DNA from: an uncultured Gammaproteobacteria bacterium
GTDB taxonomy: Bacteria; Patescibacteriota; Microgenomatia; Levybacterales; GWA1-39-11
Length of the DNA: 64,000 bases
Direction: 5' to 3'
Assembly (NCBI GenBank): GCA_964651815.1
Contig: CAZYWG010000004.1
Location: forward strand, 36,977-100,976
Shown piece after piece: positions 10,782 through 49,070 of the stretch. The notes under the pieces are model-generated. The model was not told the origin of the DNA and did not search any database. It was given only the letters and a program-made list of their open reading frames with translations. The stretch's first letter is position 1, and each line of letters begins with the position of its first letter. The translations under genes and the position numbers were made by a program.

Positions 10782-10849
10782 ATTTTTGTTCTTATTAAGA
10801 ACTCCTAAACCAGCAAATCTCTTTGTGAGCTTAGGAATAAGGTACACAG

Positions 10850-13563: not shown

Positions 13564-13752
13564 CGTGGGTGGGCATTACGCGTGGGGGCGGCGCAGACGT
13601 TCGGCGAGGCGGAGGCTTATCACTCGCTGACTGGTTTGCACCGGTCAGTTGATTAGCTTGTCGCCTGCCTTTTTTCGGTTCCTTAGACACTCTCTATCCT
13701 CCTGCGGGGCTGAAAGACTTCCAGTAGTCAATCGATGCTCCCTCGGGGGACT

Positions 13753-20718: not shown

Positions 20719-20788
20719 AAACCTAATTTAGCTCCGGATTCTCTTGCATCTCCCTTGACATATAAAAATTTAGAGTTAGAATCTAGGC

Positions 20789-21358: not shown

Positions 21359-21366
21359 AGTTCTAT

Positions 21367-22272: not shown

Positions 22273-22757
22273 AGCGCTTATATGCAAGAAAATTCTATTT
22301 CTGCGGCCACGTTTTATTAAAATGTTTCTGACTAAGCTTCCTTTTGATCCCTCAAAGCGAGCTGAAATGAAAATTATTTTATCCTTAAGATATATGTTAA
22401 GAAAGGAAACAAATCCCTTAAACTGGTGGAATAAGTAAACATATGATTGCCTTGAGAATATGGATTTGAAAGTAACTTTTGCCTCGTTTATAAGTTGCAT
22501 GTGATTGAATAGCGTTGAAAATAGGTCTTGGGCTCTAACTTCAACCGAAAGCTGAATAGGGTTCGGCCGCGGCACAAATACAAGCATCTATCTCGCTAAG
22601 CGGGATAGAAGAGCCATTAGCTTACCAGAAATGACAAGAAAAAGTCAAACCCCGAGCAGACAATAGTTATTAGTTAATAGGGAATAGTTTATAAAATCGA
22701 GCATTTGAAGATGACTTCTCAATTTCTGCTTTAACAACCAATCAGTTATTATATATT

Positions 22758-28400: not shown

Positions 28401-30983
28401 ACATTTTCATCCACTTCAGTAAACAATATTGGGTCAACACAGTCCGCATGCTCTACGGCTGCGGGATTAATAAGCCCTGGTAAATGGTACCATGTAGCTG
28501 CTGGAATAAATAGCGCGGCGTCAAATATGTATATATATGTTAACGGGTTTTTAGCAGGAGGGGGTTGCCCATATAATACTTCCGGGATTCGGACAACAAC
28601 GGGTCCATTTTTGATTGGAGCGAATACAACATGGGATTCATCTTTAGGACTAAACGGTTCAGTTGATGAATTCAGAATTTACAACCGTTCCATTTCCGCG
28701 TCTGAAATTTCCCAGACTCATCAGTATGGTAATTATTATATGGATGCAAGCGGTAACTATACACAAATTTTGGCTTCAAAAGCGTCAGGCGGAAGTGACT
28801 GTAATGACGCTTCGCCCGGAAACTATATAAGCTTGACTGGGTATGCAGATGCGGATGGGGACGGGCACTCGGTTAATACTCCAACAGTGTTTTGTGGAGG
28901 GCCTAATTTACCAGCGGGTTACCTGACTACTCCCGGTGGCGACTGTAATGACTTTAATGCAAATGTTTTTCAAAACCTGGCGAGTGGAGTAACAGATAGT
29001 GACCATGACGGATATTACGCGGGGGGTGCAGCATCACCTGATTGTGTGGGTGATGCAGTCGCTGCTTGGGTTGGTAGCGGACAAGTAGGATTTTGGAATA
29101 TGGATTATAACGGGTCCGAGCCTGATTTTTCCCAAACTTACGGACATACTTATATAGCTAATACCGGTTCTTTACAGGGTTATGCTCTTCAGGGGACAGG
29201 GCCATACGGAGATCAACCCACTTACTTTAATGGAACTAACGGTTATATGTCTGTACCAGACTCACAAGACATGAGACTTGGCACATATACGGTTTCTGTA
29301 TGGTTATATATGCCGGTCCAGAATGAATATTTTAAGGGGGTTGTTGGAAAACCCGGGAGAAATTACAATATGTGGGTTGGGAATGCAAACAACGCTGATG
29401 GTACAGGTGCAGCGTTTGTCCACCACAGATTTTATGACACAGTTAATGGGGGTAATGACGGGTGCCCAAATACCGGATATGTTGTTCAATTTAATACATG
29501 GAATCATATAGTTATTACAAATGACGGAGTAACTTGTAAAACTTATGTCATGGTTTCGGGTCCTTCATATTTACCTGTTGTTTCCGGAAGTGTAGCAGGT
29601 TCTCTTGTTACTACTACAGGGCCTACCTATTTTGCAACAAATCTTGATTCGGGTCCGGTAGGTAATTTTCTTAACGGTTATCTCGATGATGTCCAAATTT
29701 GGAATAGAGCGCTAACAGGGGGGGAAATTTATAATCTAAGGTATAACAACTTGCCTTATTATGCATATTATAAGGATGTTTCAGGAAATTATTCACAGCT
29801 TTCATCAACGGACGCACTTGGCGGTGGGGATCCGAATGATGCAAACGTAGCGGTTTGGAAAACTGCCGCAACTTACTATGACAATGACCATGATTCGTTT
29901 GGTCAGAACACTTCTGCAGGTAATCAGTGGGTGGGTTCAACTGCTACAGTTGGATATTCTCTAGATAATACCGATTGTAATGACGGAAATGTCTCTCTTT
30001 TCAGATACCTGACTGGGTATCAGGATTCTGACAATGATGGTTATACAACAGGAGGCGCGCAAAACATTTGCTCTGGAAATTCACTGCCTGCAGGCTGGCG
30101 GGCCGCGCCGAATGGCAATGATTGTAATGATGGGACTGCGGCGCTTTACCAATGGCTAACAGGCTATCAGGATTCGGATATGGACGGATACACAACTGGT
30201 GGAGCGCAAAATATATGCTCCGGAGCTACTCTTCCGTCAGGCTGGCGGGCCGCGCCAACTGCAAATGACTGCGCTGATAATTATGCCTTTATATATCAAT
30301 TGGTCTCCGGTGTATTTTGGTACGATTACGATCATGATTTGTATACTACAGGAGGGAGTGGAACCATATGCGTAGGGCCCGCTGCCATAATTAATACCAG
30401 ATGGGGACAAGCCTGGTACTATATGGATTACTTAGGACAATATTCTATTCCAACTGTAAGCGCGGGAACAGACTGCAATGACGGTAATGCATCTTACTAC
30501 CAATGGCTTTTAAGTTACCAAGATTCAGACGCAGACGGTTATGGGAATCCTTATACAGGCCAATGGCTTTGTTCCGATTCTACTTATTTCCCGGGTTGGG
30601 TTTCAAACGCGCAGGATTGTTATGACGCCAATTGGTACGCAAAGCCCGCGTCACCATATTGGTTTTCGTCTCCAAGACAGGACGGAAGTTATGACTGGAA
30701 TTGTGACGGCGGTTATAGCTACTATTATTACGATTATTATCTTGCTTACTACACAGTTAATATCTATTCTGACGGGTATTCATGTTCTAGTGGCCAAGGT
30801 TTAGCTTGTTATTCAACATACTATCCGGCTTGCGGGGCTTATGTAAATAATGCAAATGGCGCCGGCGGTTGTGCTGGTTATGCCCAGTATCAGTGGTGCG
30901 GCGGAGGTTGTAGCGGATCAAATTATTATTGCAGTTGTCTTTACTCATGTGGTACTTATCCTGCAACTCAGCTTTGTCAGTAG
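25407..30983 (+). CDS. giant type IV pilin-like protein with four LamG-like jelly-roll domains and Cys-rich MopE-like repeats
   Basis: Class III (prepilin) signal peptide with a GFTLIELVVVIAIIGALS N-methylation motif. Four LamG_3-like signatures: LDDIQIYNRALIQTEISGLY, LDDVHIYNRALTSTEVGNLY, VDEFRIYNRSISASEISQTH, LDDVQIWNRALTGGEIYNLRYN. There are many repeats of DCNDG...(D/S)D.DGYYTGG..C.G. The C-terminus is extremely Tyr/Cys-rich. Confidence 0.8.
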   Translation: MAAQPSKSGIKKLELRIKKSLARANKYSKSSGFTLIELVVVIAIIGALSTGLYSAVTSPKVKQRAQDAVRLRDINQIKTAVELYYQDHNCYPAASDNAFANSLTNTGTKAWVEGSTKYMSIVPLDPTDNPYIYKTDSSSCPQYMTLFAKLSQPAANFTACNIPSYTKTNATCIPSTATAPLDTTWGCVSSGSIACGAGPTPTPFICSGDSDCTGGKVCVNGSCVQPGAPPPTSNSSVFISQGSPPALMNLGATANISFTYKNNGATTWSPAGIYELGSQNPQDNTTWGNSRVPMTAGSSIIPGKSYTFYATITAPLVGGIYNYQWQMLQSKITIPSTGLVSYWKMDETTGTAVADSKGTSTGTATGTTIVPGIFNNARSFNGTSDYISTNYSSNFDVAPSGLSVGMWIKPTTTLQAGLPGGDPYKVFASSYDCSVNKGWNVAYDGTSGQLYVALGNGTTGAAIVRSTVQTLSAGSWYHVVFIAYPNSTSSKIYLNGVDVTGTTSSFGYSPPTGSMTIGRQTTNTCTSNYRYVNATLDDIQIYNRALIQTEISGLYTSTPFGDKTTNTTVLVVPNDLVVDADQDGYYTSSPAPAAYPVIAAQVVNGRTYYKTATSGYQYVSASATTTLGGSDCNDGSANIFQNVANIATDADLDGYYTGAPSTQCVGATYATEVSSGQVGHWAMNENSGSSVADSSSGNNNSGNTWGAPISGLLAWWKMDEGANNNAFDSSGNNNTATFTNTSWTGGKLSSAESFNGSNANGSSGSIAGIAGDHAWTISTWVNTTANPNFAWGTLLEVGNATCDKNPVLLRNPSQQYIVGFRNGTQISTTGLSIGTWGHLTAVYTGSLGTLSLYFNGQLVAGPTPVAAAGNGDGGKVNFGNDACGMGHYFNGKLDDVHIYNRALTSTEVGNLYSNAGAGGPTRSISGIGLNGSGQYVQIDNPSSGSLNPSSATITGWFQASNLAKPSGWQTIFFKGNYDCTTGCEDRQYALFLNNNGSLTFSSTSVNNIGSTQSACSTAAGLISPGKWYHVAAGINSAASNMYIYVNGFLAGGGCPYNTSGIRTTTGPFLIGANTTWDSSLGLNGSVDEFRIYNRSISASEISQTHQYGNYYMDASGNYTQILASKASGGSDCNDASPGNYISLTGYADADGDGHSVNTPTVFCGGPNLPAGYLTTPGGDCNDFNANVFQNLASGVTDSDHDGYYAGGAASPDCVGDAVAAWVGSGQVGFWNMDYNGSEPDFSQTYGHTYIANTGSLQGYALQGTGPYGDQPTYFNGTNGYMSVPDSQDMRLGTYTVSVWLYMPVQNEYFKGVVGKPGRNYNMWVGNANNADGTGAAFVHHRFYDTVNGGNDGCPNTGYVVQFNTWNHIVITNDGVTCKTYVMVSGPSYLPVVSGSVAGSLVTTTGPTYFATNLDSGPVGNFLNGYLDDVQIWNRALTGGEIYNLRYNNLPYYAYYKDVSGNYSQLSSTDALGGGDPNDANVAVWKTAATYYDNDHDSFGQNTSAGNQWVGSTATVGYSLDNTDCNDGNVSLFRYLTGYQDSDNDGYTTGGAQNICSGNSLPAGWRAAPNGNDCNDGTAALYQWLTGYQDSDMDGYTTGGAQNICSGATLPSGWRAAPTANDCADNYAFIYQLVSGVFWYDYDHDLYTTGGSGTICVGPAAIINTRWGQAWYYMDYLGQYSIPTVSAGTDCNDGNASYYQWLLSYQDSDADGYGNPYTGQWLCSDSTYFPGWVSNAQDCYDANWYAKPASPYWFSSPRQDGSYDWNCDGGYSYYYYDYYLAYYTVNIYSDGYSCSSGQGLACYSTYYPACGAYVNNANGAGGCAGYAQYQWCGGGCSGSNYYCSCLYSCGTYPATQLCQ

Positions 30984-35316: not shown

Positions 35317-35982
35317 TTACTTTCTTATTGTATCTGTAGGTTTTGGTGGGGGAGGCGGTACTTTTATGGAAGAGGAACGGGAAGCCTGTGGTAATTCGGG
35401 GCTTGGAAGTGCTTTAATTTTATCAAGCTCAGATTTATTTATGGGATTACCTTTAAGAATCAAATAGGTAAGTTCTTTCATGCTTGAAATTTCCGGTGGC
35501 AAAGCCTCAAGTTTATTATTTGACATGTCAAGAAGCTGGAGCTTCTTGAGTTTTGAAATCGTAGTGGGCAAAGAAGAAATTTTGTTGCCTGATAGATTAA
35601 TTCCTATTAGGTTTTGCAATGAAAGAAGTTCTTCAGGGAAGTGCGTGAACTTATTATTGCTCAAGTCTATTTGAGTAAGCTTTGAGAGTTTTGATATTCC
35701 GGAGGGAAATGTGGATAGATTTTTGTATGATAAATCCAAGGCGCAAGCTTGTTTTACATGAGCTAATGCCGTTTCCAGGTTCGTGAATCTTGCACACTCA
35801 ACTTTGGAGTTTAAAGTGGAACCGGTATTGGAAATTGTTTCCTTTGAGGATTGATTTTGCGAGTTATTTAGCCTTAGAAACATTAAAACCCCGAGTGCTG
35901 CAATAACGACTAATGAAGTGAAACCAAATACAAGGGTTTTTACTCTTATTTTTGCAATTTTTGATATCATATTTCGGGTCAT
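35317..35982 (-). CDS. membrane-anchored leucine-rich repeat (LRR) protein
   Basis: An N-terminal TM helix followed by LRRs: LDLSYKNLSTFPSGISKLSKLTQIDLSNNKFTHFPEELLSLQNLIGINLSGNKISSLP...LDMSNNKLEALP. The tail is Pro-rich (VPPPPPKP). Confidence 0.7.
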   Translation of the reverse strand: MTRNMISKIAKIRVKTLVFGFTSLVVIAALGVLMFLRLNNSQNQSSKETISNTGSTLNSKVECARFTNLETALAHVKQACALDLSYKNLSTFPSGISKLSKLTQIDLSNNKFTHFPEELLSLQNLIGINLSGNKISSLPTTISKLKKLQLLDMSNNKLEALPPEISSMKELTYLILKGNPINKSELDKIKALPSPELPQASRSSSIKVPPPPPKPTDTIRK

Positions 35983-36053: not shown

Positions 36054-36719
36054 CTATTTTAGCGAAGAGGTAGGGCTCGCAGGTTTATAATCTAAAGGTA
36101 GTAATTGATACACTGCGTGTACTCTGGATTTATCAGCCTTGTCTATATCATTTCCAATCAGATTGAGTGATGGAATTGAGTTAAGATATTTTGAGTCTTC
36201 AGGTAATTTAGTAATTTTATTGTTTGATAAATCAAGAACCTGAAGGCGTTTCAGATTAGAAATACCTAACGGGATCTCTTTTATTTGGTTGTTTGCAAGA
36301 TCTATTTCTACGATACTCCGAAGCGACAAAAGTTCTTCCGGAAAAACAGTAAATTTATTTTTGTTAAGAATTATTGTATTAAGGTGGGTTAAACTGGTAA
36401 TTCCGGGAGGCAGAGTTTTAAGATTTTTTCTAGATAGGTCAAGTATGCATGCCTGATCGATATATTTTAGAGCATAATTTAAGTCCGTGAATTTCGCGCA
36501 AGTAACTTTTGGATTTAGAGTTGGTTCAGCTACAGACTGAGATGTTTTGATAGATCCGGGAACAGATGGATTCTTAAAAAATGATTTAATCTGGTTAAAA
36601 AACAAAATACCACCCACAAGAGCAATGATTATAGCCATAAGCCCTATGACTGTAAATGTTTGGATTGGAACCGCACCTTTCTGACTTTCTGTTTTAGACA
36701 TAATTTTATATTCGTACAA
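36054..36719 (-). CDS. membrane-anchored LRR protein, paralog of the adjacent gene
   Basis: Same architecture and identical length (221 aa). LRRs: LDLSRKNLKTLPPGITSLTHLNTIILNKNKFTVFPEELLSLRSIVEIDLANNQIKEIP...LDLSNNKITKLP. Confidence 0.7.
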   Translation of the reverse strand: MYEYKIMSKTESQKGAVPIQTFTVIGLMAIIIALVGGILFFNQIKSFFKNPSVPGSIKTSQSVAEPTLNPKVTCAKFTDLNYALKYIDQACILDLSRKNLKTLPPGITSLTHLNTIILNKNKFTVFPEELLSLRSIVEIDLANNQIKEIPLGISNLKRLQVLDLSNNKITKLPEDSKYLNSIPSLNLIGNDIDKADKSRVHAVYQLLPLDYKPASPTSSLK

Positions 36720-36773: not shown

Positions 36774-39700
36774 TTAATTAACTATTATCCAATTAAACTT
36801 TATATCTTGCGTTGCAGGCCTATCAATCCCAACTGTAAAAGAGAGCCCCGCCTCTTGGCGAAGAAGATATAATACCTCATTGTTGCTACTTCCGGTGGGA
36901 GTAATGTAAATCAAAGATTTATCAGTGACCTGGGAATCATAAATAGTCAGTTCTCCAGAATATTGTTTTATCGCCGCCGTGCCTGCAGACCCGGTTGCTA
37001 CAACTTCAGTATCTGAGATTGCGTAGGCCGGCGCGGCAAATGAAAGGTTCAATTTATTAAACGTTCCGGATCCAGAGGCTACAACGTTTCCGATGCTGTT
37101 TATTGCTAAAATGGCCGCATCAGACGAATTTTTTATTAAAAGGTCTGAATCGGGTAGGGGAGAGATAATATTTGTCCGGATCCTTCCTTTAACGCTTAAG
37201 TCACCCGCAATTTCTGCATTTCCGGCAACTTTAAGCGTTCCGTCAGTCTCAATTCTAACGGCACCCGCAAGGAAAGAAACGGCTCCCTGCCTTAGAGGTT
37301 CAATTTCAAGATCTTGCCCAAGCGTATCAATTGAATTGGATCCAATCATAAGTGTTGTCCCAACCCAAATCCCGTCGTTTGCTGTCACTTGACCAAAAGT
37401 TGCAGGGCCAAGACTAATTAGTCCTTGACGGAATGTGCCAAAATCTGCGTTGAAGTTTGAAACGTCAACGTAATCTATGTTTGTGATTTTTGCCTGGCCA
37501 GTCATTATATTTGCCATATCGGTAAATCCGCCTGAAGTTTGGGCAACCGTTTCATGATAGTTAGAAACATATTGACCAGAAGGCGTTGAAGTATTGGTGC
37601 TTCCCAAAATATTTTGAATACGCGAATCAAGTCCTTGAATAGAATTTGCCTGGATATTATTAGCGTAAAGCGTACCTGAGATTGTAGCGTAGGACGCATT
37701 TAAGTTATCAGCTGTGAGATTTCCTGAGAGTGTTGCATTTCGAGCCGCTAAATCACCCTGCGTGTAGACATTACCTTTGTTATCAATTGAGGCTACAGTT
37801 GCAGACTCTGTTGCATTTCTTGAGCTATGAATTTCGAGTTCCGAATTATTTAGTCCGAGAGAAATGTTTGAATCAGCAGCAAGTGGGCTTATTACATTGG
37901 TTTCAACTTGATTGGCACTTGCAAGAGGAGAAACAATATTTGAATTAGGAATTATGTCGGCGAGAGAGCCTGTTGAACTAATTGTTTGTTTTACCACTTG
38001 CTGAATGTAGTCGGAGAGAGATTGCCCGGCAATTGTTACAGAGTTAGTTGCAACTGCCAATGAATTGGTAGTTAAGCTCCCGGCGACATTCACGCTTTGG
38101 GCAATGACATTCACAAAGTTTTGAGTTGTCGCAGCGGCCGCAGCGTAAAGTTCTTGAATTGCCTTAACAACCTTCCATATTGATGGTTCTTCAACCATTA
38201 AGTAACCGTTTGATCCGGTATGAACCATTTCTGGGAATACATTCTGTACTTCTTGAGCAATAACACCTGTTAATCTATTGCCCGAGGTTTTTACAGTATA
38301 TTCTCTGATTCTAAGTTTGGATAGATCGGATAATGTGTCACCTGAATCAACTATATCTGTTTTAAGCCGTTCATCAGAAGAACATGTTACTGTTTCAGAC
38401 CCTGCTTGTGGGTTGTGGTCACAAGTTCCATCAGCATCCTGAAGCCTAAGCACATTTGTATTGGCGGCTGAGTTTATTTGGAGAGCTACTTGAGGGTCGT
38501 TTGTACCTATCCCCACATTCCCACCGGCGCCATTAACGCTTTGGATTATGAGATTACCAGATATCGAAGCAGTTACGGGTCCGGAGGAATTTACATTGAA
38601 AATTGCAAATTTGGCAGAAGACGTGGATTGGCCACCAATTACAAAGTCGGCTGTCGTATTGTTGGGGTAGAGCAGGCCGTTTGTTTGATTCCAGAATAAA
38701 TCATTTGATGAAACAGCTCCCGTGCATGTTCCCCACGAAGGATTTGATGCTCCGGAGATTAAACAAAGACCTGAGGTAGAAGTTGTTGCTTGACCAAGGT
38801 CGCCCGTGGCATAGCTTCCATAAAGCGCGCCGTTTTGGCCTGTGAAGTTTGGGAGATTAATTCCCTGTGCCGCTCGCCCGATTTTTATGGTTGTTGCATT
38901 AGATGAGCCTATTGAAAGAGTACCCGTTGAAATAGTATCAATAGATACGCCCGGTGAAAGAGAAAGGTCCCCGTTATTCTGAATCAAGAATCTTAGTGTA
39001 CCACTTGATGACGCGGCAAAAATGTCCCCGCCTGAAGTATGGTTATCAACTATAAAAGCCGCAGCGGCAGAAGTTGTTGCAATTACTGCAAATTGATCGT
39101 CAACCTCAACGGCCCCTGGGATTGACCCGGCGTTTGTTGAGTTAATAATTGGTTTTTGAAGGTCAATTCTACCAAGCCCGTCAGGCGCCACTTGTATATC
39201 TGCGTTAGTGGAGGCGTTTGTTGTCAAAATTAAGGGTTGCCCCGAAATTTTAAATTGTCCGCCCGTTGCCTGAAAGGTTGGAGAAGCCTTACCGCCTATT
39301 GTTAAATTACCGGATGAGTCAAGCGCTAAGACTACATTTGAAGTTCCGGCCGTGGTGTCTGTAATTGGACGCATCCCTTGAAGTGACTCCGAATTAGCAG
39401 CATATGCTACCGTTGCGAGTTGCTGGCGAGGAGCAAGCTCATCAGTATCTTCAACGGTTATTCCAAGAAATAGCCTAGAATTATCAGTAAACAAGTTATT
39501 TGGAATAGTGCAAGGAGTTTTCTGGACAGCGAGTGGTTGATTCAAGCAAGGCGCTCCGTCTCCTAATAACTCGTTAAAAACCCCATTTTCATCAGGAATC
39601 ACTTGGTCAACCTCTTGCCACACAAGATGTCCTGCGCCGGTTGCTGTTGTGTCGTTATAAATTGTAAACCGAATGTTTGTTGGCTGAGTTATGGCCGCAT

Positions 39701-40907
39701 CGTTTTTGTCAGTAAGCCTACCCTGAAATGAGAGTATTCTAGGTGGAGCAACAGAAGAAGCCAGCGCCTTTTGGGTTTGTGGCGCAAAAAGGCCTGTATA
39801 TATAATGTAGCCCAGGACCGAAGCATATATCATAAGAACTGCAACATGTAAATAATGAGCGACTGTATACTTATGATAGCTTAAGTACCATTTAGGTCGA
39901 GAATAACTTGCGTGATGTAATATTTGTTTGTATAGCGGAAGTCCTACAAGTGATACTGTTTGAGGCGAATATTGTTGCTTTGAATAGCTTTTAACATAGG
40001 TGGCCAATACTTTCCCTGACTTCCCACTATTTGAAGAAATTTTGTCATTCAGCTTTGATAAGTTAATCCCGTTTGCAATTTTTGTGGCTACTTTTTCTTC
40101 TAAAATTAAGTATGGTAGAAAAAGTTTCTGCAAGAGTCTGAGCGGCGGGAAAGGAGAAAATTTAATGAGATCCTCAACTGGTGTTTCTACAGATTTGATT
40201 TCTTCAAGATTTACTCCAGAATTAGCCTCAGGATTTTTGATTTCTTCAAGCGTAGGATTCACAAAGCTAGGAATATCACGTAGCGGTTCCGCCTCCTGGG
40301 AGTGAGTTGTACCTCCGCTTACAAAAGAAATGTAGCGTCTAATAGAGGAGAGCTTGCGATTGATGCTACTAGGTGATAAGCCAAGAATTGATGCTAACCT
40401 TTCTTTATATATTTCAATTGTTTGAGGATCGAGGACAGGATTATTATCTTTTCCTTTTGGGGCGCTTTCAGAAAGCCATGTTGTAAAAGCATTTATATCA
40501 ACCATGTAGTTTTTCATGGTTAAAGCAGATGCACCACTTTGATATAGATGGTTCTTAAAGTTTTTTAAGTCCCAGGGATCACTCGAAATTAATTCCCGGA
40601 CTTTGGTTTTAGATATTTCATCAAAAGGATCTGCGTCAATTAAGCTCTTGTCCTTTAAGTACTTTGTAAATTTTCTTAAAGTAGATATGTATCTTTCTGT
40701 TGACCTAGGCGAATTAGAATTGCTTTGATTTTGGAAGAGAGTAATAACCTCATCATTTATATCCTCCGCAGAAAACTCATTTTCATAGTAAGTGCTGTAC
40801 CAATTTAAAAACTTATTGATGTCTGACACATAATTCTTAGCAGTAACAGCAGATACTCGTTTCTGCGAAATTAAGAAGGATTTAAAATCATTGATAAGAT
40901 CATTCAT
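36774..40907 (-). CDS. giant membrane-anchored fibre-like surface protein with two N-terminal recombinase core-binding-like domains and a tail-fibre intramolecular-chaperone-like domain
   Basis: Residues 1-40 and ~110-150 match the phage-integrase N-terminal SAM-like pattern (LINDFKSFLISQKRVSAVTAKNYVSDINKFLNWY; LKNFKNHLYQSGASALTMKNYMVDINAFTTWL). A single TM helix lies at ~aa 345-370. About 1000 aa of Ser/Thr/Gly/Asn-rich sequence follows. A segment (SDERLKTDIV...LRIREYTVKT...GVIAQEVQNVFPEMV...AIQEL) matches the peptidase S74 / endosialidase-chaperone signature. Confidence 0.6.
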   Translation of the reverse strand: MNDLINDFKSFLISQKRVSAVTAKNYVSDINKFLNWYSTYYENEFSAEDINDEVITLFQNQSNSNSPRSTERYISTLRKFTKYLKDKSLIDADPFDEISKTKVRELISSDPWDLKNFKNHLYQSGASALTMKNYMVDINAFTTWLSESAPKGKDNNPVLDPQTIEIYKERLASILGLSPSSINRKLSSIRRYISFVSGGTTHSQEAEPLRDIPSFVNPTLEEIKNPEANSGVNLEEIKSVETPVEDLIKFSPFPPLRLLQKLFLPYLILEEKVATKIANGINLSKLNDKISSNSGKSGKVLATYVKSYSKQQYSPQTVSLVGLPLYKQILHHASYSRPKWYLSYHKYTVAHYLHVAVLMIYASVLGYIIYTGLFAPQTQKALASSVAPPRILSFQGRLTDKNDAAITQPTNIRFTIYNDTTATGAGHLVWQEVDQVIPDENGVFNELLGDGAPCLNQPLAVQKTPCTIPNNLFTDNSRLFLGITVEDTDELAPRQQLATVAYAANSESLQGMRPITDTTAGTSNVVLALDSSGNLTIGGKASPTFQATGGQFKISGQPLILTTNASTNADIQVAPDGLGRIDLQKPIINSTNAGSIPGAVEVDDQFAVIATTSAAAAFIVDNHTSGGDIFAASSSGTLRFLIQNNGDLSLSPGVSIDTISTGTLSIGSSNATTIKIGRAAQGINLPNFTGQNGALYGSYATGDLGQATTSTSGLCLISGASNPSWGTCTGAVSSNDLFWNQTNGLLYPNNTTADFVIGGQSTSSAKFAIFNVNSSGPVTASISGNLIIQSVNGAGGNVGIGTNDPQVALQINSAANTNVLRLQDADGTCDHNPQAGSETVTCSSDERLKTDIVDSGDTLSDLSKLRIREYTVKTSGNRLTGVIAQEVQNVFPEMVHTGSNGYLMVEEPSIWKVVKAIQELYAAAAATTQNFVNVIAQSVNVAGSLTTNSLAVATNSVTIAGQSLSDYIQQVVKQTISSTGSLADIIPNSNIVSPLASANQVETNVISPLAADSNISLGLNNSELEIHSSRNATESATVASIDNKGNVYTQGDLAARNATLSGNLTADNLNASYATISGTLYANNIQANSIQGLDSRIQNILGSTNTSTPSGQYVSNYHETVAQTSGGFTDMANIMTGQAKITNIDYVDVSNFNADFGTFRQGLISLGPATFGQVTANDGIWVGTTLMIGSNSIDTLGQDLEIEPLRQGAVSFLAGAVRIETDGTLKVAGNAEIAGDLSVKGRIRTNIISPLPDSDLLIKNSSDAAILAINSIGNVVASGSGTFNKLNLSFAAPAYAISDTEVVATGSAGTAAIKQYSGELTIYDSQVTDKSLIYITPTGSSNNEVLYLLRQEAGLSFTVGIDRPATQDIKFNWIIVN

Positions 40908-41824
40908 AAAAACTCGAGCCTATTTTTGTAAATATTTCTAGTTTTGTGAAAACTGAGGCTATGAAATATTTAAATAAATAATATCCCCGCAAGTAGAATT
41001 GTTATCAGGTCAGCTTTGGAATTATACTGATTATACAAGTTATTTACTGCGTGAATAAAGCTTAGCTTAATATCTCGAGCGTTGTCAATAACCCAGAGTA
41101 AAGTAGAATGGTAAATTTGATATTAATTGATACACTTATTTGGGCAAAAATGTCTTGTGAAAAGGTAAATTATAGGTATGAAAAGCTTGTGAAGCGACTA
41201 TTACCGAATTTTCACGATCTATAGAATATATAATTGTAGATTAAACTATATCATTAGGTTTGTTTTTTGATCTGATATACTTTGATACGCACAGTCAAAA
41301 TATATCTGCTAATAAGATACTATTCTGTAAAAATAGAAATACTATATATAAAACAGACTAGTATGAAGATTCTTAGACAAGACTTGCTGAGATCATCTTT
41401 ATCACTTCCACTGGGTATATGATAAACAAAATACATGATAGTTTTTACCTATGCTATCAGTCTGATTTAAATTTGGGTTTCTGTGGTGAGACGAGAGATG
41501 TTCTAATCTGTTAAGGTTAGCTTCATTTTAGATTAACGAAATAAAACCGAAAGCCATATCAAGGTTATTTACTCCAAGATGTATCAATTGACTCTCTCTC
41601 TGAGTACTTGATAAAAATTAAGATTAAGCACTAAATATAATGCAACCTGTAGTTTAAGTTCATTCCCGCAGCGCTTAAAAATTAGCTTCATAGTAATTTT
41701 AAGAAGGCTGATTTCGTATTTTTTTCGTCTTTCTTGTACGTTGAGATTACCATTATTTGAAAGAATTTATAAAAAGGGACTTTGATTGCGTAGGTATTTG
41801 TAGATAATAAAGAAGTGAAAGTGT

Positions 41825-43178: not shown

Positions 43179-43931
43179 TTAAATTGAAGGTGTGGCGATA
43201 TAGATAATTGTATTTTGATATATACCAGCAGGTTGGGTGCCTGCAATGTTCAATTTATAAGTGGTTTGGGATTTTGCCTTCGCTGGCGTTTTATTGTTAC
43301 TCATAATAACTACACTTTGTTGATTTTTTGATAGATTAGAAAAGTGCTTGTAATAAGTTTGATCCGTGAAGTCAATATTACAATCAAGACTCAAAAGGTT
43401 GTCGCATCTATAGCCGAAGCCGTAAGTGAGTGGTGAAGACCAGGTTGCTGATGTAGCTTCAGTGCAATTACCCTTGTCGCAAGTTGTATCTGGAATAAAC
43501 GCTCCAGAAGGAGTTGCTTTTAGCTCGTGATCTTCGCTTGCAATAACCTGATAACCAGATTGTGAGCCTGGATCAATTGTCAGAGTGTTAGTCCTAGTGA
43601 TAGGTTCTCCTGGTTTTAATTCATCAAAATTGATGGAGTTATTTGAAATAGAGAATGAGAAAGCATTGGAATTATTTAAGTATTGAAAACCTGATTGGAG
43701 AGTGTAGTTAGTCCCTTTATAAAAACCCGGTGCACTTTGACCTGAAGTGAAAGTTATATTTGTTTGACTATTAGAAGCACGGCCAGAAAAAGAATTGAGG
43801 TTTCCCTCCTCAATTTTATAAGCACCATTAGACATTGTTTGTGCGCTGGCTGAGAAGGGTAAAATATATATAAACGCTATTAAAGATATCAGAAGTAAAC
43901 AATTGACTCGTTGCCTATCACAGTTTTTCAT
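43179..43931 (-). CDS. secreted hypothetical protein (possibly WxL-like)
   Basis: Signal peptide LLLISLIAFIYILPFSASA. The start was chosen at Met 43931 to avoid overlap with the upstream gene. It is Ser/Asn/Thr-rich. Confidence 0.35.
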   Translation of the reverse strand: MKNCDRQRVNCLLLISLIAFIYILPFSASAQTMSNGAYKIEEGNLNSFSGRASNSQTNITFTSGQSAPGFYKGTNYTLQSGFQYLNNSNAFSFSISNNSINFDELKPGEPITRTNTLTIDPGSQSGYQVIASEDHELKATPSGAFIPDTTCDKGNCTEATSATWSSPLTYGFGYRCDNLLSLDCNIDFTDQTYYKHFSNLSKNQQSVVIMSNNKTPAKAKSQTTYKLNIAGTQPAGIYQNTIIYIATPSI

Positions 43932-43932
43932 T

Positions 43933-44568
43933 CTATTGGTCCTCAGTTTTTTTACGCAGGTCTTTTGCTTTTTCAACTATGTCATCAATTTCATTCAGCG
44001 CATCTTCATTTTTTGTATGACTTTTGAGTGTTTGAGCGTCTTCAAGTATTTGTCCTGTCTTGTCTTCAACCTCAGCTTCCAATTCCTCCCGCTTTTTAAA
44101 CTCTCGGCCAAAGAAATATGAAATAGGTGCAAGGAACGCAAGCGAGCCGAGCTTGATCAGGTTTGTGGTAAGGTCACCATCTGACAGTGATGGGAAAAAG
44201 ACAACCCAGAGGCCCAAAAGTAAAATAAACACTGTAGGTGGTTCAAAAAGAAAGACGAGCCCAAAAAGAAGGAAGTATAGAAGGAAGTATAGATTTGAAC
44301 CGAGACCGCCTGTCAGGAAAATGGCAATCAAAAGAATTAATGTAACAACAAAAACCTCTTTATTTGATCCTATCAAAATCTCTTCAGCCAATTGCCCGGC
44401 TTTGATTTTTGATTTACCCATGCGCTGGCGAATTATCAGAAATATTACAGATACTATAATAAGGAAGCCCAATATCGGGATCATGTAGAACGCAAGGTCA
44501 GTTGAATTTATTAAAAGCATTGTCCCAAGAGCGAGAAGGAGAGTAATTGATTGAAACAGTAGCTTCAT
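43933..44568 (-). CDS. polytopic membrane protein with a charged coiled-coil-like C-terminal tail (hypothetical)
   Basis: 4-5 hydrophobic helices, then KKREELEAEVEDKTGQILEDAQTLK.... Confidence 0.4.
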   Translation of the reverse strand: MKLLFQSITLLLALGTMLLINSTDLAFYMIPILGFLIIVSVIFLIIRQRMGKSKIKAGQLAEEILIGSNKEVFVVTLILLIAIFLTGGLGSNLYFLLYFLLFGLVFLFEPPTVFILLLGLWVVFFPSLSDGDLTTNLIKLGSLAFLAPISYFFGREFKKREELEAEVEDKTGQILEDAQTLKSHTKNEDALNEIDDIVEKAKDLRKKTEDQ

Positions 44569-44676: not shown

Positions 44677-47313
44677 ATGGGTAAAGCAAGTTCGGCACAA
44701 GATGGAAATCAAATTGAGAAATACATTCCTTCCAAAATCGAGAAGAAGTGGCAGGATAATTGGGAAGCCAACAGAGTCTATTCTGTAAGCCTTGACCAAA
44801 TTAAGAACCCTTTCTACGTTTTAGTTGAATTCACCTATCCGTCAGGAGACCTGCACATGGGCCATTGGTTTGCTTTCTCAATTCCTGATATGTATGCGCG
44901 GATGAAGAGAATGCAAGGATTTGATGTTTTTTTCCCCAACGGCTTTGACGCATTTGGATTGCCTGCTGAGAACGCGGCTATAAAACGGAATATTCACCCA
45001 AAAGACTGGACTTTATCAAACATACAACGAATGAAAGGTCAATTTAGGCTCATGGGCGCTTCATATAATTGGGACAATGAAGTTATTACTTGTTTGCCTG
45101 AATATTACCGCTGGAACCAATGGATATTTTTGAAAATGGCAGAAAAAGGAATAGCATATCGAGCCAAAACTCTATCAAACTGGTGTCCAAATGATCAAAC
45201 TGTATTAGCGAACGAACACGTTGAGGATGGAAAGTGTTGGCGATGCGGGGCAGTGGTAATCCAAAAAGAAGTGGAGCAGTGGTTCCTAAAAATTACGGCT
45301 TATGCGGATAGGTTGCTTTGGCCTTCCGAAGCTTCAGCGAAGGAGGGTAAATCTGAAAACGTAGATTGGCCTAAATCAGTAAAGGAAGGTCAGAATTCGT
45401 GGATTGGCAAATCGGAAGGTGCACTGATAGAATTTAAAGTTGATAATTTAGACCGTCAAATCAACCTTAAATCGGCTGAGCTCAAAGTGTTTACAACCCG
45501 TCCAGACACACTTTGGGGGGCAACTTTTGTTGTTTTAGCTCCTGAACACCCTATAGTCGATTCACTTTTGAAGGGAAAAGGTAAAATTGAAAAGGGAAAA
45601 GTTAAAAAGAACGAGACAGCAAATGATATAGAAAGTATGGATTTAGATATTGATAATCGTGAAGATATAATCTCGAGCGTTAAAAAATATGTTGAGGTGT
45701 CATCTAAGAAAACAGAACTTGAAAGGAAAGAAAATAAAGAAAAGACAGGCGTTTTTACAGGCCTATATTGTACTAATCCAGCCTCAGGTGAAAAGATCCC
45801 TGTTTGGGTAGCAGATTATGTTCTGTCTGGATACGGAACCGGAGCAATTATGGCTGTACCTGCGCATGATGAGCGAGATTTTGAATTCGCAAAAAAATAT
45901 AAATTACCTATAAAACAGGTTATTGTGCCTGATGATGAATTTGCTGAGTTCGATAAAAACGTTGACAAGTCAGGGGAGCTAAAGCAGCCATATTTAGGTG
46001 AGGGTGGAATTGTTAATTCCGGGGATGACTGGAATGATTATCATGTTCCTGCGGCACTTCCAAAGATAATTGATGATGTTGAGAAAAAAGGAATAGGAAA
46101 GCGCCAGGTCCAATACCATCTACACGACTGGTCGGTATCTCGCCAGAGATATTGGGGTACGCCAGTGCCTATGATCAATTGCGGTAACTGCGGAATCGTA
46201 CCTGTTCCAGAAAAAGATTTGCCGGTTGAGCTTCCTTATGATGTTGACTACCAACCAAAGGGACGCGCGCCGCTTGCGACAAATGAGGAATGGATGCGAG
46301 TCAAATGTCCAAAATGTGAAGGAGACGCGACTCGTGACCCTGAGACTCTTGACACGTTCTTTGACTCCTCATGGTATATGTTTAGATACCTTTCACCACA
46401 CTTTGATGGGGGTTTATTCGACCAGAATATAGAAAAAAAAGTGATGCCAGTAAATATTTACTTTGGCGGAGCGGAGCATACATTAGGACACACACTTTAT
46501 TCGCGCTTCTTCACAAAATTCTTTAAAGATACGGGTTTAACTGATCTTGAAGAATACGCTAAAAGGCGGATTCAGCACGGAATAATTTTAGGTCCTGACG
46601 GGCAGAAAATGAGCAAGTCCCACGGTAATGTTATCAATCCAGATGACCAAGTGAAACAATATGGAGCAGACGCTGTAAGAATTTATTTAGCATTCTTGGG
46701 GCCTTATGACCTTGTTGCACCCTGGAATGCCGGCGGAATAGAAGGTATCCACCGTTTCTTAAAAAGAGTTTGGGGATTATATGACAAGATCCAAGATCCC
46801 CTTTCCAAAAAACAAGAATTGACACAGGATGACTTACACGAGATGCATAGGACTATTAAAAAAGTTACGGATGATATAGAAGGTGTTAAATTAAATACAG
46901 CTATAGCTAGCCTAATGGAGTGGCTGAACCATTTATCCCGTAAAGAGTTGGTTTCAATTGAGGAATACCAAACGTTCCTGAAATTACTTGCGCCTTTTGC
47001 TCCTCATATGACTGAAGAGCTATGGGAAAGGGAATTAAAGGAATCAAGTGTCTCAGAGGTATCAGGGGGGGGCTCGATTCATATTCAAAAATGGCCTATT
47101 CTTGATGAGAAATATTTACAGCAGTCAGAATTGACAATTGCCATCCAAGTGAATGGGAAAAGAAGGGGAGAGATTAGAATTCAGAACTCAGAATCTATAG
47201 TGCAGAATTTAGTTGAAGAGAAGTCAAAAGAAGTCATTCGAACCCATTTGGAAGGCCAAGAAATACGCAAAGTTATCTACGTGCCTGGCAAGATTATAAA
47301 TTTCGTAATCTAA
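44677..47313 (+). CDS. leuS: leucyl-tRNA synthetase
   Basis: HIGH-region variant PSGDLHMGH. Also DAFGLPAEN, CWRCG and the KMSKS motif (QKMSKSHGN). A Lys-rich insertion is present. Confidence 0.9.
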   Translation: MGKASSAQDGNQIEKYIPSKIEKKWQDNWEANRVYSVSLDQIKNPFYVLVEFTYPSGDLHMGHWFAFSIPDMYARMKRMQGFDVFFPNGFDAFGLPAENAAIKRNIHPKDWTLSNIQRMKGQFRLMGASYNWDNEVITCLPEYYRWNQWIFLKMAEKGIAYRAKTLSNWCPNDQTVLANEHVEDGKCWRCGAVVIQKEVEQWFLKITAYADRLLWPSEASAKEGKSENVDWPKSVKEGQNSWIGKSEGALIEFKVDNLDRQINLKSAELKVFTTRPDTLWGATFVVLAPEHPIVDSLLKGKGKIEKGKVKKNETANDIESMDLDIDNREDIISSVKKYVEVSSKKTELERKENKEKTGVFTGLYCTNPASGEKIPVWVADYVLSGYGTGAIMAVPAHDERDFEFAKKYKLPIKQVIVPDDEFAEFDKNVDKSGELKQPYLGEGGIVNSGDDWNDYHVPAALPKIIDDVEKKGIGKRQVQYHLHDWSVSRQRYWGTPVPMINCGNCGIVPVPEKDLPVELPYDVDYQPKGRAPLATNEEWMRVKCPKCEGDATRDPETLDTFFDSSWYMFRYLSPHFDGGLFDQNIEKKVMPVNIYFGGAEHTLGHTLYSRFFTKFFKDTGLTDLEEYAKRRIQHGIILGPDGQKMSKSHGNVINPDDQVKQYGADAVRIYLAFLGPYDLVAPWNAGGIEGIHRFLKRVWGLYDKIQDPLSKKQELTQDDLHEMHRTIKKVTDDIEGVKLNTAIASLMEWLNHLSRKELVSIEEYQTFLKLLAPFAPHMTEELWERELKESSVSEVSGGGSIHIQKWPILDEKYLQQSELTIAIQVNGKRRGEIRIQNSESIVQNLVEEKSKEVIRTHLEGQEIRKVIYVPGKIINFVI

Positions 47314-47334
47314 CTGTTAACCTCAATTATCCAT

Positions 47335-48045
47335 TTGCTTCTTGATTCATGTATCTTGATTTTATATTCTAATCTTATGGAAGATTCCTCAGACAATTTT
47401 CAGGAAAGGGCAATGGAATTTGCCAGGAAGAATTGGGTAGTTTTAGCTTTATTTTCAGGTGGCGTTGTTCTATTGCTTATTGGTTTGATACAGTTACTTG
47501 GACCAAAGACATCTGCTTCTAATTCTTCTTTTCAGAATGAGGCGGAGGTGGCTGGTGCTGCCAGTGAAAGTTCTAACAGCGCAAAAATAAAAATTGATGT
47601 TGAAGGAGAGGTACAAAACCCCGGAGTTTATAATTTACCTCTAAATGCGCGAGTTCAGGATGCTTTGATTGCGGCAGGAGGTTTATCTCAAGATGCAGAT
47701 AGAATATTAGTTGAGAAGACAATTAATTTGGCGCAGAAATTGATTGATGGCCAGAAAATTTATGTTCCATCAGAACAAGACGCGGGCGGTGGCGCTTCAA
47801 GCGGAGTTGGCGCAAGTTTGGGAACATCCGGCGGTAAAACCGCTTCAGATCTAAGTATAAACGGAGGGCTTGTTTCAATTAATTCCGCAAGTGAACAAGA
47901 CCTAGATAGTCTCCCGGCTGTAGGCCCTGTAACCGCGCAAAAAATAATTGACAACAGGCCTTATAGTCAGCTTGATGACCTAGTTGCCAAGAAGGCGGTG
48001 GGGAAGGCAACATTTGAAAAGATAAAGGATTTGATAAGTTTATAG
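47335..48045 (+). CDS. comEA: competence protein ComEA (SLBB + helix-hairpin-helix DNA-binding domain)
   Basis: An N-terminal TM helix, an SLBB-like segment (IDVEGEVQNPGVYNLPLNARVQDALIAAGG), and a C-terminal HhH (DLDSLPAVGPVTAQKIIDNRPYSQLDDL). Confidence 0.75.
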   Translation: MLLDSCILILYSNLMEDSSDNFQERAMEFARKNWVVLALFSGGVVLLLIGLIQLLGPKTSASNSSFQNEAEVAGAASESSNSAKIKIDVEGEVQNPGVYNLPLNARVQDALIAAGGLSQDADRILVEKTINLAQKLIDGQKIYVPSEQDAGGGASSGVGASLGTSGGKTASDLSINGGLVSINSASEQDLDSLPAVGPVTAQKIIDNRPYSQLDDLVAKKAVGKATFEKIKDLISL

Positions 48046-48080
48046 GTCTAGCTCGCGCTTTCCTATGTTGAAATGCAAAA

Positions 48081-49070
48081 TTGATGAAAAAAATTGTAAC
48101 ATTACTAATTGTTATTCTTGGAGTTCGGTTGATGTTCTTTTATTTAAATTCTCCTATTAAAACTTCCCAAAAAGCTATTCATCCTCAAGCTACCATTTTT
48201 ACCAGTATAAAGCAGAGTATAAAATCAACTTATAGTCAGAATTTAAGTGCACAAAATGCCGGACTTCTGATGGGAATAGTATTCGGAGAAAAAGATATGG
48301 ATAAACAGTCTGTGAAAATATTTCAAAAGACCGGGGTGTTACATATTATTGCCGCCTCAGGCATGAACGTTAGCATGCTAGTGAGTTTTCTGCTGGCATT
48401 TCTACTTATCTTTTTGAGGCGCCAACAAGCACTTGTTGCAACATTTGTGGCAATAATTTTTTACACGGCATTGGCTGATTTTCAGCCATCTATTGTTAGA
48501 GCTGCAATTATGGGCGGTTTCGCTATTGGCGCAGGAATTATTGGGAGACAAAACAGCGCCATATTTACATTGATTATTACAGCTTTTGTTATGATATTTT
48601 GGGATCCTGCCGTTTTAGTCTCGATAAGCTTTATTTTATCCTTTGCCGCAACTGCCGGAATTGTACTTTTTGAACCCATATTTAAAAAGTATTTTAAAAA
48701 CCCGCTCCTCGAAGATTTTAGGACAACGTTTGCCGCGCAAATTGCAACAACGCCTATAATATTATTCTTTTTTGGCACCTATTCACCTATTTCAATTCTG
48801 GTAAATCTTCTTGTTTTGTGGACAGTTCCACCACTAATGTTGTTAGGAGGGATTGCTGCCATGTTTTCTTTCGCGCCAATTCTTTCCAAACCTATCCTTT
48901 TGCTTTGTATGCCACTCTTAACATACTTTATGAACGTCACCGGATTTTTTGCACAAAGCGCACCACAGATTAGTATAAAAGAGACACCGTGGAGTCTGAT
49001 AGGTGGATATTATTTGATATTAATTGCTATATTATTTTATACTTATCGGAGAAAAAGTATAGTAGTTTGA
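48081..49070 (+). CDS. comEC: ComEC/Rec2-family competence channel, short form lacking the C-terminal metallo-beta-lactamase domain
   Basis: Competence-domain signature (NAGLLMGIVFGEKDMDKQSVKIFQKTGVLHIIAASGMNVSML) with multiple TM helices. It is only 329 aa. Confidence 0.7.
   Translation: MMKKIVTLLIVILGVRLMFFYLNSPIKTSQKAIHPQATIFTSIKQSIKSTYSQNLSAQNAGLLMGIVFGEKDMDKQSVKIFQKTGVLHIIAASGMNVSMLVSFLLAFLLIFLRRQQALVATFVAIIFYTALADFQPSIVRAAIMGGFAIGAGIIGRQNSAIFTLIITAFVMIFWDPAVLVSISFILSFAATAGIVLFEPIFKKYFKNPLLEDFRTTFAAQIATTPIILFFFGTYSPISILVNLLVLWTVPPLMLLGGIAAMFSFAPILSKPILLLCMPLLTYFMNVTGFFAQSAPQISIKETPWSLIGGYYLILIAILFYTYRRKSIVV

Follow-up and report, generated by a model that had tools for sequence, protein, structure and literature searches.

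A predicted membrane-anchored, self-processing tail-fibre-like protein with a tandem recombinase core-binding head in Levybacteria-type CPR bacteria

What kind of protein begins like a site-specific integrase and continues like a phage tail fibre? The question is raised by an open reading frame (ORF) at positions 36774-40907, minus strand, of a 64,000-nucleotide stretch of DNA (the window; positions 36,977 to 100,976 of contig CAZYWG010000004.1, GenBank assembly GCA_964651815.1) from a Levybacteria-type bacterium of the candidate phyla radiation (CPR). The ORF opens with an ATG start codon and encodes 1377 aa plus a stop codon. An initial annotation, made without database searches, had described the product as a cell-anchored, self-processing trimeric fibre whose cytoplasmic head might bind nucleic acid or a partner. 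That outline is supported by the results below, from which we infer trimerisation, cleavage and nucleic-acid binding. The protein is read here as a single-pass, self-processing trimeric host-contact fibre with a probably DNA-binding cytoplasmic domain pair, and this reading is favoured with moderate confidence.

A protein identical to the ORF product (P0019) is on record from NCBI and from two independent Sequence Read Archive (SRA) assemblies (Logan), so a local assembly artefact can be excluded. Domains were called with Pfam, NCBIfam and PHROGs profiles and judged against curated cut-offs. From the N-terminus, the order is core-binding domain 1, core-binding domain 2, a transmembrane (TM) helix (residues 353-375), the fibre, and within it a Peptidase_S74 intramolecular chaperone auto-processing (S74/ICA) module (844-944). 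At the level of sequence and structure prediction, the domain layout, the missing catalytic domain, the conservation across the family, the intact Ser-Lys dyad, the swapping of the chaperone cassette and the synteny can be taken as demonstrated. The architecture is widespread and conserved, is so far undescribed, and is assembled from known modules. A literature search for the domain combination or for giant fibres of CPR bacteria returned no description. The earlier remark that the protein could not be placed in a described family was essentially right: databases name such proteins integrases, and in the literature a single mention, without analysis, of a 'tail fibre-like protein' beside pam pilus operons was the sole trace found.

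The N-terminus carries the signature of tyrosine-recombinase core-binding (SAM-like) domains. Phage_int_SAM_1 (PF02899) matched in two stretches (E = 4.8e-20; 72 bits against a cut-off of 22.3), the best at residues 5-86, and Phage_int_SAM_4 and Phage_int_SAM_5, the models by which the N-terminus was to be checked, likewise scored above their Pfam cut-offs. With Peptidase_S74 further along the chain, both of the domain classes first proposed from the letters were thus recovered above curated cut-offs. The pattern F.L...T...Y...F..W on which the first proposal rested is real (F8/L12/T22/Y26/F33/W36 and F117/L121/T130/Y134/F141/W144, invariant or nearly so in relatives), but the unit size of about 40 aa given with it is not: each 40-aa motif is made up of the opening helices of a domain of ~85-100 aa. 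The two domains form a true internal repeat, with a local alignment score of 94 against 28.6 +/- 5.8 for shuffled sequences. Conserved positions in relatives are T22, K24, N25, Y26, D29, F33 and W36 in domain 1; in domain 2, Y134, D137, W144, Y167, L171, R184, K185, S187 and R190 are invariant in 51 sequences.

An AlphaFold2 (AF2) model of residues 1-400, built from an alignment of 51 sequences, had a mean predicted local distance difference test score (pLDDT) of 80.6. Two helical bundles were modelled at residues 2-109 and 114-198 with pLDDT roughly 90 or above; the helices of domain 1 span 2-14, 20-41, 52-64, 67-86 and 94-109 (pLDDT 88-97). Residues 200-350, after the pair, were modelled as a disordered linker and then as helices running into the TM helix. 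In a Foldseek search of the PDB with the head model, the top matches were recombinase core-binding domains (IntI4 2a3v, XerA 5hxy, Brujita Int 5vfz, lambda Int 1z19 and 3nrw), with probability ~1 and a root-mean-square deviation of 2.3-3.0 A over 84-96 columns; all E-values were above 0.001 because the query has several domains. Both domains are thus predicted to fold as recombinase core-binding domains, and the pair is kept across homologs. A generic coiled coil, which the initial annotation had named as a refuting outcome, is not what AF2, Foldseek and the conservation in relatives describe.

Single-sequence phmmer against the PDB found nothing; matches there were given by the family profile alone. 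Chain 14 of entry 9i5v, a P. gingivalis 'RaiA' of ~400 aa, matches domain 1 at E = 7e-9 through an integrase SAM-like region at its N-terminus, and so appears to be a fusion of recombinase-like and HPF parts. The entry (9i5v_14, 401 aa) was considered as a hint of ribosome binding and set aside as uninformative, only 34 residues of its HPF-like part being modelled on the ribosome.

Relatives of the protein are named 'site-specific integrase' or 'recombinase XerD' in databases (PGAP, JGI), and PHROG integrase families match parts of the fibre protein, as do PHROG tail-fibre families. Such names and matches would suit a true integrase of the XerD kind, or a prophage tail-fibre gene joined, through chance or mis-assembly, to part of an integrase. 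The integrase catalytic domain PF00589, with its R-K-H-R-H/W-Y active site, nevertheless gave no Pfam match even at E <= 1. The NCBIfam XerC and XerD models, of 295 and 290 positions, aligned only over their first ~100 and scored 77.7 and 68.4 bits, far under cut-offs of 335 and 330. Hundreds of clusters and at least 152 species show the same architecture, and the identical protein stands in independent assemblies. The chromosomal setting is fixed: LeuRS is divergent in 46 of 50 loci, the genes for ComEA/ComEC, Rho, LysM-M23 and TPR proteins lie close by, and phage genes are absent. Both forms of this explanation are regarded as effectively excluded.

The core-binding pair is followed by an acidic linker (modelled as disordered over residues 200-245, with AF2 pLDDT below 50 for about 200-242), with a family mean net charge of -3.2 and a net charge of -7 in the fibre protein. 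The juxtamembrane region, residues 251-352, was modelled as a long helix (254-293) and shorter helices. Just before the membrane lies a conserved R337-P-x-W-Y-x-x-Y-H motif in which P338 and Y341 are invariant and R337, W340, Y344 and H345 nearly so. A single hydrophobic segment was found at ~351-375 (Kyte-Doolittle, peak 1.94), with an AF2 helix at 348-374, in agreement with the one TM helix first proposed. An N-terminal signal peptide was not found in the fibre protein. The summed family mean net charge is ~+13 over residues 251-352 and ~+1.7 over the 25 residues past the TM helix. Because the strong positive charge before the helix fits the positive-inside rule, the N-terminus is predicted to lie inside, and the charge pattern supports a single-pass, N-in/C-out topology. 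A cell-anchored protein with a cytoplasmic head, as proposed at the outset, is therefore the predicted arrangement, given the missing signal peptide, the one TM helix and the strongly basic ~100 residues ahead of it.

The predicted ectodomain comprises 1002 aa, of which 37.8% are Ser, Thr, Gly or Asn and 13.1% are charged; the corresponding values for the cytoplasmic part are 27.8% and 23.3%. The description of a Ser/Thr/Gly/Asn-rich outer part of roughly 1000 aa thus fits the measured composition. PHROG tail-fibre families, including phrog_5668, match residues 667-920. Peptidase_S74 (PF13884) was found at residues 844-895 (E = 1.1e-10; 42.1 bits against a cut-off of 22). The match ends 482 aa short of the C-terminus, which accords with the embedded position, about 500 aa before the end, that had been read from the sequence.

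The module contains a Ser844-x4-Lys849 dyad (codons 38376-38378 and 38361-38363, respectively) that is invariant in 20 full-length relatives. A profile built from these 20 relatives matched the S16 long tail fibre 6f45 (6e-12), the tail fibre 8jov, the MyRF ICA domain 7dc3 (1e-7) and the GA-1 neck appendage 3gud. In the family profile alignment, S844/K849 stand in register with S587/K592 of MyRF (equivalent to S911/K916 of endoNF). In MyRF, the Ser-Lys dyad S587/K592 was shown by experiment to cut the chain immediately before the Ser, and to do so in the trimer only (PMC8326128). Because the dyad is invariant and aligned to that of MyRF, trimer-dependent self-cleavage is predicted between S843 and S844. 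We also infer that the fibre trimerises.

In the AF2 monomer, the S74 module and its trailing helix (~844-944) were modelled at pLDDT ~80-87, with a long helix at 910-944 (model residues 91-125; pLDDT ~80), a candidate for the C-terminal helix that in S74 domains builds the trimerising coiled coil. The last ~80-85 residues (about 1294-1377; nucleotides 36777-37028) form a beta-sandwich at pLDDT 83-93, and the distal fragment ends in an invariant ...FNWIIVN. Fold searches with the model of residues 820-1377 returned phage tailspike and ICA proteins, including the Pam1 tailspike, GA-1 3gud and endoNF 3gw6. In BFVD, 229 matches were obtained at E <= 0.001, many of them titled 'intramolecular chaperone auto-processing domain'. 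The distal end has a weak fold resemblance to tailspike and K1-lyase C-termini, and a distant relative (P0268) bears Pfam K1-lyase_C. A sequence search with the distal fragment returned CPR fragments and one K1-lyase_C relative only, with no independent functional annotation.

A full-length search gave 103 relatives of 1200-2400 aa, nearly all with a SAM-like N-terminus. About 25 of them carry S74 and about 20 carry Peptidase_G2, the auto-cleaving chaperone of phi29/GA-1, in its place; collagen repeats or an intein fragment occur in a few. An exhaustive hidden Markov model (HMM) search with the N-terminal profile returned 644 cluster representatives (50% identity) at E <= 1e-30, the longest of 6048 aa. 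At least 152 relatives, mostly from Levyibacteriota (Levybacteria/Microgenomatia), were found in a scan of species-representative genomes.

Conservation was mapped by BLAST over 91 long relatives. Residues 1 to ~650 are common to 79-91 of these sequences (about 85-91 over the ectodomain part up to ~650), and the number falls to ~63 by residue 800. The S74 region, ~800-930, is common to 24-41 only, and residues ~950-1377 are again common to 65-75, even where the chaperone module differs. In the G2-type member P0067, G2 lies at residues 939-1021, an equivalent internal position. Because the two halves (1-800 and 930-1377) are conserved while the S74 region is exchanged for G2 at the same internal spot, the predicted self-cleaving chaperone is, judged by these alignments, a swappable S74/G2 cassette between them. 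Its internal position is likewise, on the same comparison, a conserved feature of the family. The design principle looks like conserved internal cleavage and not the loss of a terminal cap.

Other members extend the range of ectodomains. Among the relatives noted (P0119, P0137 and P0122), family members of up to 4036-6048 aa occur; P0119 (1235 aa) has at its end an Intein_splicing match of 31.5 bits, below the cut-off of 35.8, and other relatives have collagen triple-helix repeats. Given these giant, intein-like and collagen-bearing members, very diverse ectodomains appear to be carried on the head-plus-TM module. Many of the loci L006-L085 come from metagenome-assembled genomes titled 'uncultured Gammaproteobacteria bacterium', and further relatives are labelled Sulfotelmatobacter, Methylomirabilota or Eisenbacteria. 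The gene content and synteny of such loci are those of Levybacteria-type CPR bacteria, and the titles look like placeholders or mis-binned contigs.

The gene neighbourhood was compared over 80 reference loci, 50 of which have at least 8 kb of upstream sequence. The source genome and three relatives, inspected gene by gene, have ComEC, ComEA and LeuRS in that order, followed in divergent orientation by 2-3 small unannotated envelope proteins and the giant gene. Judged by this gene order, the fibre gene is the last of a conserved cluster. Coordinates of the domains and of the neighbouring genes are collected in Table 1.

Table 1. Features of the fibre gene and its conserved neighbours, in window coordinates.
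Feature	Position	Strand	Basis or conservation
Whole ORF	36774..40907	minus	1377 aa + stop; identical P0019 in NCBI and Logan assemblies
Core-binding (SAM-like) domain 1, residues 1-100, predicted cytoplasmic	40608..40907	minus	Pfam PF02899, AF2, Foldseek, conserved residues
Core-binding (SAM-like) domain 2, residues 110-198, predicted cytoplasmic	40314..40580	minus	Second PF02899 stretch, internal repeat, invariant residues
Acidic linker, predicted disordered, residues 199-250	40158..40313	minus	Low AF2 pLDDT, net charge
Basic helical juxtamembrane region, residues 251-352	39852..40157	minus	AF2 helices, family charge, conserved motif
Single TM helix, residues 353-375, signal-anchor, predicted N-in/C-out	39783..39851	minus	Kyte-Doolittle, AF2
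Proximal ectodomain/stalk, residues 376-843	38379..39782	minus	Conservation in long relatives, PHROG match
Peptidase_S74 intramolecular-chaperone auto-processing module, residues 844-944	38076..38378	minus	Pfam PF13884, invariant dyad, profile matches, AF2
Conserved distal fragment, residues 945-1377, C-terminal beta-sandwich	36777..38075	minus	Conservation in long relatives, AF2, weak fold matches
330-aa partner, signal-peptide-like N-terminus and C-terminal TM helix	41825..42817	minus	Homolog on same strand as giant gene in 49/50 loci
265-aa partner (250 aa by gene callers), secreted, Pam-pilin-like	43179..43976	minus	Same strand as giant gene in 49/50 loci
211-aa partner, polytopic membrane protein with charged C-terminal tail	43933..44568	minus	Same strand as giant gene in 37/50 loci
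LeuRS	44677-49070 region	plus	Opposite to giant gene, 46/50 loci
ComEA (SLBB + HHH_3)	44677-49070 region	plus	Opposite to giant gene, 33/50 loci

The 330-aa partner has hydrophobic segments at 3-27 and 297-327 and a sub-threshold WxLIP_PGBD match (E = 1.1e-3). The 265-aa partner has an N-terminal hydrophobic segment at 22-47. Several hydrophobic segments were found in the 211-aa partner, for which Pfam and NCBIfam gave no significant family match. Pam pili have been described in a preprint (Troman et al. 2026, bioRxiv 10.64898/2026.03.03.709456) as built of donor-strand-exchange pilins, mainly in Saccharimonadia and Microgenomatia, with PapD-like membrane-anchored chaperones, PamC/D, that have a signal peptide and a C-terminal TM helix. 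The same preprint states in one sentence, and without analysis, that a 'tail fibre-like protein' is consistently co-localised with pam operons; no accession or description is given for it, and the words integrase, recombinase and tail fiber are absent from the text. The giant protein is plausibly that 'tail fibre-like protein' or a relative of it.

A ComEC-type Competence domain protein accompanies LeuRS and ComEA at 44677-49070 on the plus strand, divergently upstream of the fibre cluster. The proximity of ComEA/ComEC was considered as a link to DNA uptake and rejected: these genes lie on the opposite strand, beyond LeuRS, and in 33 of the 50 loci, and the proximity is taken as lineage synteny and not as evidence of function. 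The gap between the fibre gene and the 330-aa partner (40908-41824) is AT-rich, non-coding and unusually long (~917 bp; 279-6519 bp in relatives, median 1167). A conserved regulatory element or repeated binding sites in it were considered and set aside. Promoter-like matches occurred at background rate (15 against 14.8 +/- 3.9). Cross-genome blastn matches in the gap were short and weak, and lay ~100-220 nt upstream of the start codon; an Rfam search of the whole window gave no RNA family at threshold.

Directly downstream of the fibre gene, on the minus strand, two tandem genes (35317-35982 and 36054-36719) encode proteins of 221 aa that each combine an N-terminal TM helix with leucine-rich repeats (LRR). 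They were considered as conserved partners and rejected, being present in none of the 80 related loci. The pair echoes PAN-1, reported as an LRR-TM protein and MYRF partner in C. elegans; the adjacency is probably incidental. In relatives L003-L005, the genes directly downstream of the fibre gene are those for Rho, a LysM-Peptidase_M23 protein and a TPR protein (19267-24890 in the window). In the source genome, this set is displaced by ~12 kb of inserted surface-protein genes, comprising a pilin-LamG giant, several unannotated ORFs and the LRR pair. The giant (25407-30983, plus strand; 1858 aa) has a type IV pilin-like N-terminus (N_methyl + T2SSG) and four Laminin_G_3 domains, as in a pseudopilin-like surface protein, and locus L003 has a similar gene immediately downstream of its giant-fibre homolog.

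Further away, window positions 10000-14300 form a G+C-rich island (GC 0.49-0.58 against ~0.36 around it). Within it, an ORF at 11201-12880 (minus) encodes a Pro/Ala/Thr/Gln-rich protein of 559 aa with one TM helix (87-114) and no Pfam family. Upstream on the same strand, the ORF at 13753-14298 encodes an extracytoplasmic function (ECF)-type sigma factor (Sigma70_r2/r4). The two look like a sigma/anti-sigma pair, possibly horizontally acquired.

On the favoured reading, the ~1000 extracellular residues would form a phage-tail-fibre-like homotrimer, the internal S74 module driving folding and trimerisation. Once trimeric, the module would cut its own chain between S843 and S844 through Ser844/Lys849, to yield a membrane-anchored stalk (1-843) and a distal 534-residue piece (844-1377) ending in the tailspike-like beta-sandwich. 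One conserved gene cluster would supply the fibre along with three other products: a protein resembling Pam pilins, a chaperone-like protein anchored in the membrane, and a small polytopic membrane protein. In the cytoplasm, the trimer would present six core-binding domains, two per chain and without a catalytic domain. A DNA-bound head might anchor the base of the fibre at the nucleoid or, as with ToxR or MYRF, make gene expression depend on the state of the fibre. Surface or host contact (adhesion) would be the most likely role of the fibre.

That the cytoplasmic core-binding pair binds DNA is probable and is, with any signalling, the least certain part of this proposal. DNA binding is put forward because the fold binds DNA in recombinases and in the catalysis-free regulator FliZ, the documented activities that were found for core-binding-like folds; the FliZ NCBIfam model itself gave a weak match to the fibre protein (E = 2.3e-5). 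A number of results weigh against the proposal and are considered here with the alternatives to which they lend weight. Domain 1 of the fibre protein has a net charge of -2, which is weak for a DNA binder, and the family mean net charges of the two core-binding domains are only +3.6 and +3.9, within a range of -4 to +11. A candidate DNA target for the head was not found in the upstream intergenic region, where conservation is short and weak. The most conserved residues (T.KNY..D...F..W; NRKLSS.R.Y) belong in part to the structural core of the fold. On one alternative, the fibre is the same but its head has lost DNA binding and been exapted as a helical scaffold, either to dock a cytoplasmic protein (a factor of assembly, secretion or the cytoskeleton) or simply to hold the base of the trimer together. 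Every characterised use documented for the fold, however, is DNA binding; the invariant basic or polar residues K24/N25, K132/N133 and R184/K185/R190 persist across more than 50 diverged sequences; and the adjoining 100 residues are strongly basic. A scaffold head is considered a serious possibility, but an unlikely one.

Another such result lies just past the membrane. A small-residue motif, A381-L-A383-S, stands ~8 residues beyond the TM helix (A/T-L/V-A-A in the family). Of 51 sequences, 38 have Ala at position 383 and 46 have Ala, Gly or Ser there; position 384 is Ala, Gly or Ser in 41, and position 381 is Ala, Thr, Ser or Val in 37. The motif could be a signal-peptidase site, and cleavage there would uncouple the fibre from the head. 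It is followed by a strand, L392-S-F-Q-G-R-L-T-D400, in which L392, F394, G396, L398 and D400 are nearly invariant; residues 381-400, with motif and strand, lie at about 39708-39767 of the window, minus strand. The strand resembles the phi-x-F-x-G-x-phi pattern of the N-terminal extensions, or donor strands, of chaperone-usher pilins; similar motifs presumably open the 'tail fiber domain' proteins of Bacteroidota. Strand and motif together could mean signal-peptidase processing, strand complementation with a neighbouring pilin-like protein, or both.

The TM helix might accordingly be an internal, cleavable export signal. Signal peptidase would cut at A-x-A, and the freed fibre would join or cap a Pam-like pilus, for example with LSFQGRLTD as donor strand, leaving a core-binding/TM stub that could be processed further. 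The conserved small residues, the nearly invariant strand and the clustering of the gene with pilin-like and chaperone-like genes all suit this. It would nevertheless be highly unusual for a cleavable signal to be preceded by a folded cytoplasmic domain of 350 residues, only 25 of 50 sequences have a strict A-x-A, and LSFQGRLTD more likely opens a folded beta-domain. Release of the fibre in this way is considered improbable.

The remaining unfavourable results concern the distal model and the pilus genes. The AF2 model of residues 820-1377 is moderate (mean pLDDT 66; predicted template modelling score, pTM, 0.25), and the Foldseek E-values of this model against the PDB were all above 0.001. 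For the 265-aa partner, NCBIfam CPR_pilus_PamT (NF058579) matched at E = 3e-10 and 39.9 bits, below a cut-off of 240, and CPR_Pam_pilin_C (NF058581) at E = 5e-6 and 26.7 bits, below a cut-off of 55. The 330-aa partner gave no NCBIfam match and no match to a Pam family.

The anchored fibre with a DNA-binding head, the reading that is preferred here, could be taken one step further, to a transmembrane signalling or tethering device. The fibre would sense host contact, for example by force-dependent loss of a non-covalently held distal fragment, as in adhesion G-protein-coupled receptors (GPCRs) or Notch, and would relay this to the six DNA-binding domains, altering expression or holding the chromosome at the contact site. 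This extension is quite unlikely at present. If true, it would be a prokaryotic, topologically inverted counterpart of MYRF in ultrasmall epibiotic bacteria with few conventional regulators.

Several consequences follow from the architecture as predicted. Hundreds of CPR proteins named 'site-specific integrase' or XerD would not be recombinases, so that counts of mobile elements in Patescibacteria are inflated and a major envelope component is hidden. CPR bacteria depend on cell contact, and their adhesins and contact sensing are barely known; a conserved, chromosomally fixed fibre encoded beside Pam-pilin-like genes offers a concrete candidate for what was noted, without analysis, as a 'tail fibre-like protein' near pam operons. 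The protein would be a second, independent case, after eukaryotic MYRF, in which a cell recruits a phage S74 self-cleaving chaperone into a membrane protein with a DNA-binding-type domain. In addition, no earlier case was found in which the cytoplasmic end of a surface structure is a tandem core-binding pair free of a catalytic domain. Were the head to bind DNA, a surface appendage would be directly linked to the nucleoid.

Among known systems, tyrosine recombinases (XerC/D, lambda Int, IntI and XerA) share with the fibre protein two domains of Phage_int_SAM signature and fold. Unlike them, the fibre protein has no catalytic domain, and its core-binding domain is tandem-duplicated and fused to a membrane anchor and an extracellular fibre, an arrangement of which no description was found. 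FliZ provides a precedent for a core-binding-like domain that acts purely as a DNA-binding regulator.

Phage fibres and tailspikes with a C-terminal chaperone (endoNF, T5 pb1 and S16 gp37) are alike in their tail-fibre PHROGs, S74/ICA structures and tailspike-like C-terminal folds, and relatives of the fibre protein carry the G2-type module of the phi29/GA-1 neck appendage. In classical phage fibres, the chaperone module is a disposable C-terminal cap; here it is internal, with ~430 conserved residues after it. The gene is, moreover, cellular and chromosomally fixed, it encodes a TM anchor and a 350-residue cytoplasmic domain, and it has no phage context.

The Pam pilus system resembles the cluster in its lineage range (Microgenomatia/Saccharimonadia), in the 265-aa gene that matches the PamT and Pam-pilin-C models, and in the 330-aa gene with a layout like that of PamC/D. 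The matches are, however, far below the NCBIfam cut-offs, and one pilin-like gene is present here against PamA/B/E/T/R. A Pfam scan of the window ORFs of 150 aa or more found no ATP-synthase genes. The mention of a fibre in the Pam preprint comes without a description of core-binding domains, a TM helix or an S74 module.

MYRF is, like the fibre protein, a single-pass membrane protein that combines an N-terminal DNA-binding-type domain with a phage-derived S74/ICA domain bearing a Ser-x4-Lys dyad, which in MyRF is trimer-dependent. The two differ in topology: here the ICA module lies ~470 residues past the TM helix, on the predicted outer side and opposite to the head, so that cleavage would split the fibre and not free the head. 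They differ also in origin and in the DNA-binding domain, which is of Ndt80 type in the eukaryotic protein and a tandem core-binding pair in the CPR bacterial one; an Ndt80/PhoG-type DNA-binding domain gave no Pfam match in the fibre protein, whose head consists of Phage_int_SAM domains.

Regulators of the ToxR/CadC/TcpP type also have the layout predicted for the fibre protein: a DNA-binding domain at the N-terminus in the cytoplasm, one TM helix, and a C-terminal domain beyond the membrane. In those regulators, a winged-helix OmpR-type domain is combined with a small periplasmic sensor domain. Here the head is a core-binding pair, with no Pfam match to an OmpR-type winged helix (Trans_reg_C/wHTH), and the ectodomain is a predicted self-cleaving fibre of 1000 residues. 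Because it has no catalytic recombinase domain, an ICA module across the membrane from the head, and no winged helix, the fibre protein fails the defining features of each of these classes. It is most like a hybrid of an ICA-bearing phage tail fibre and a ToxR- or MYRF-like membrane-tethered DNA binder.

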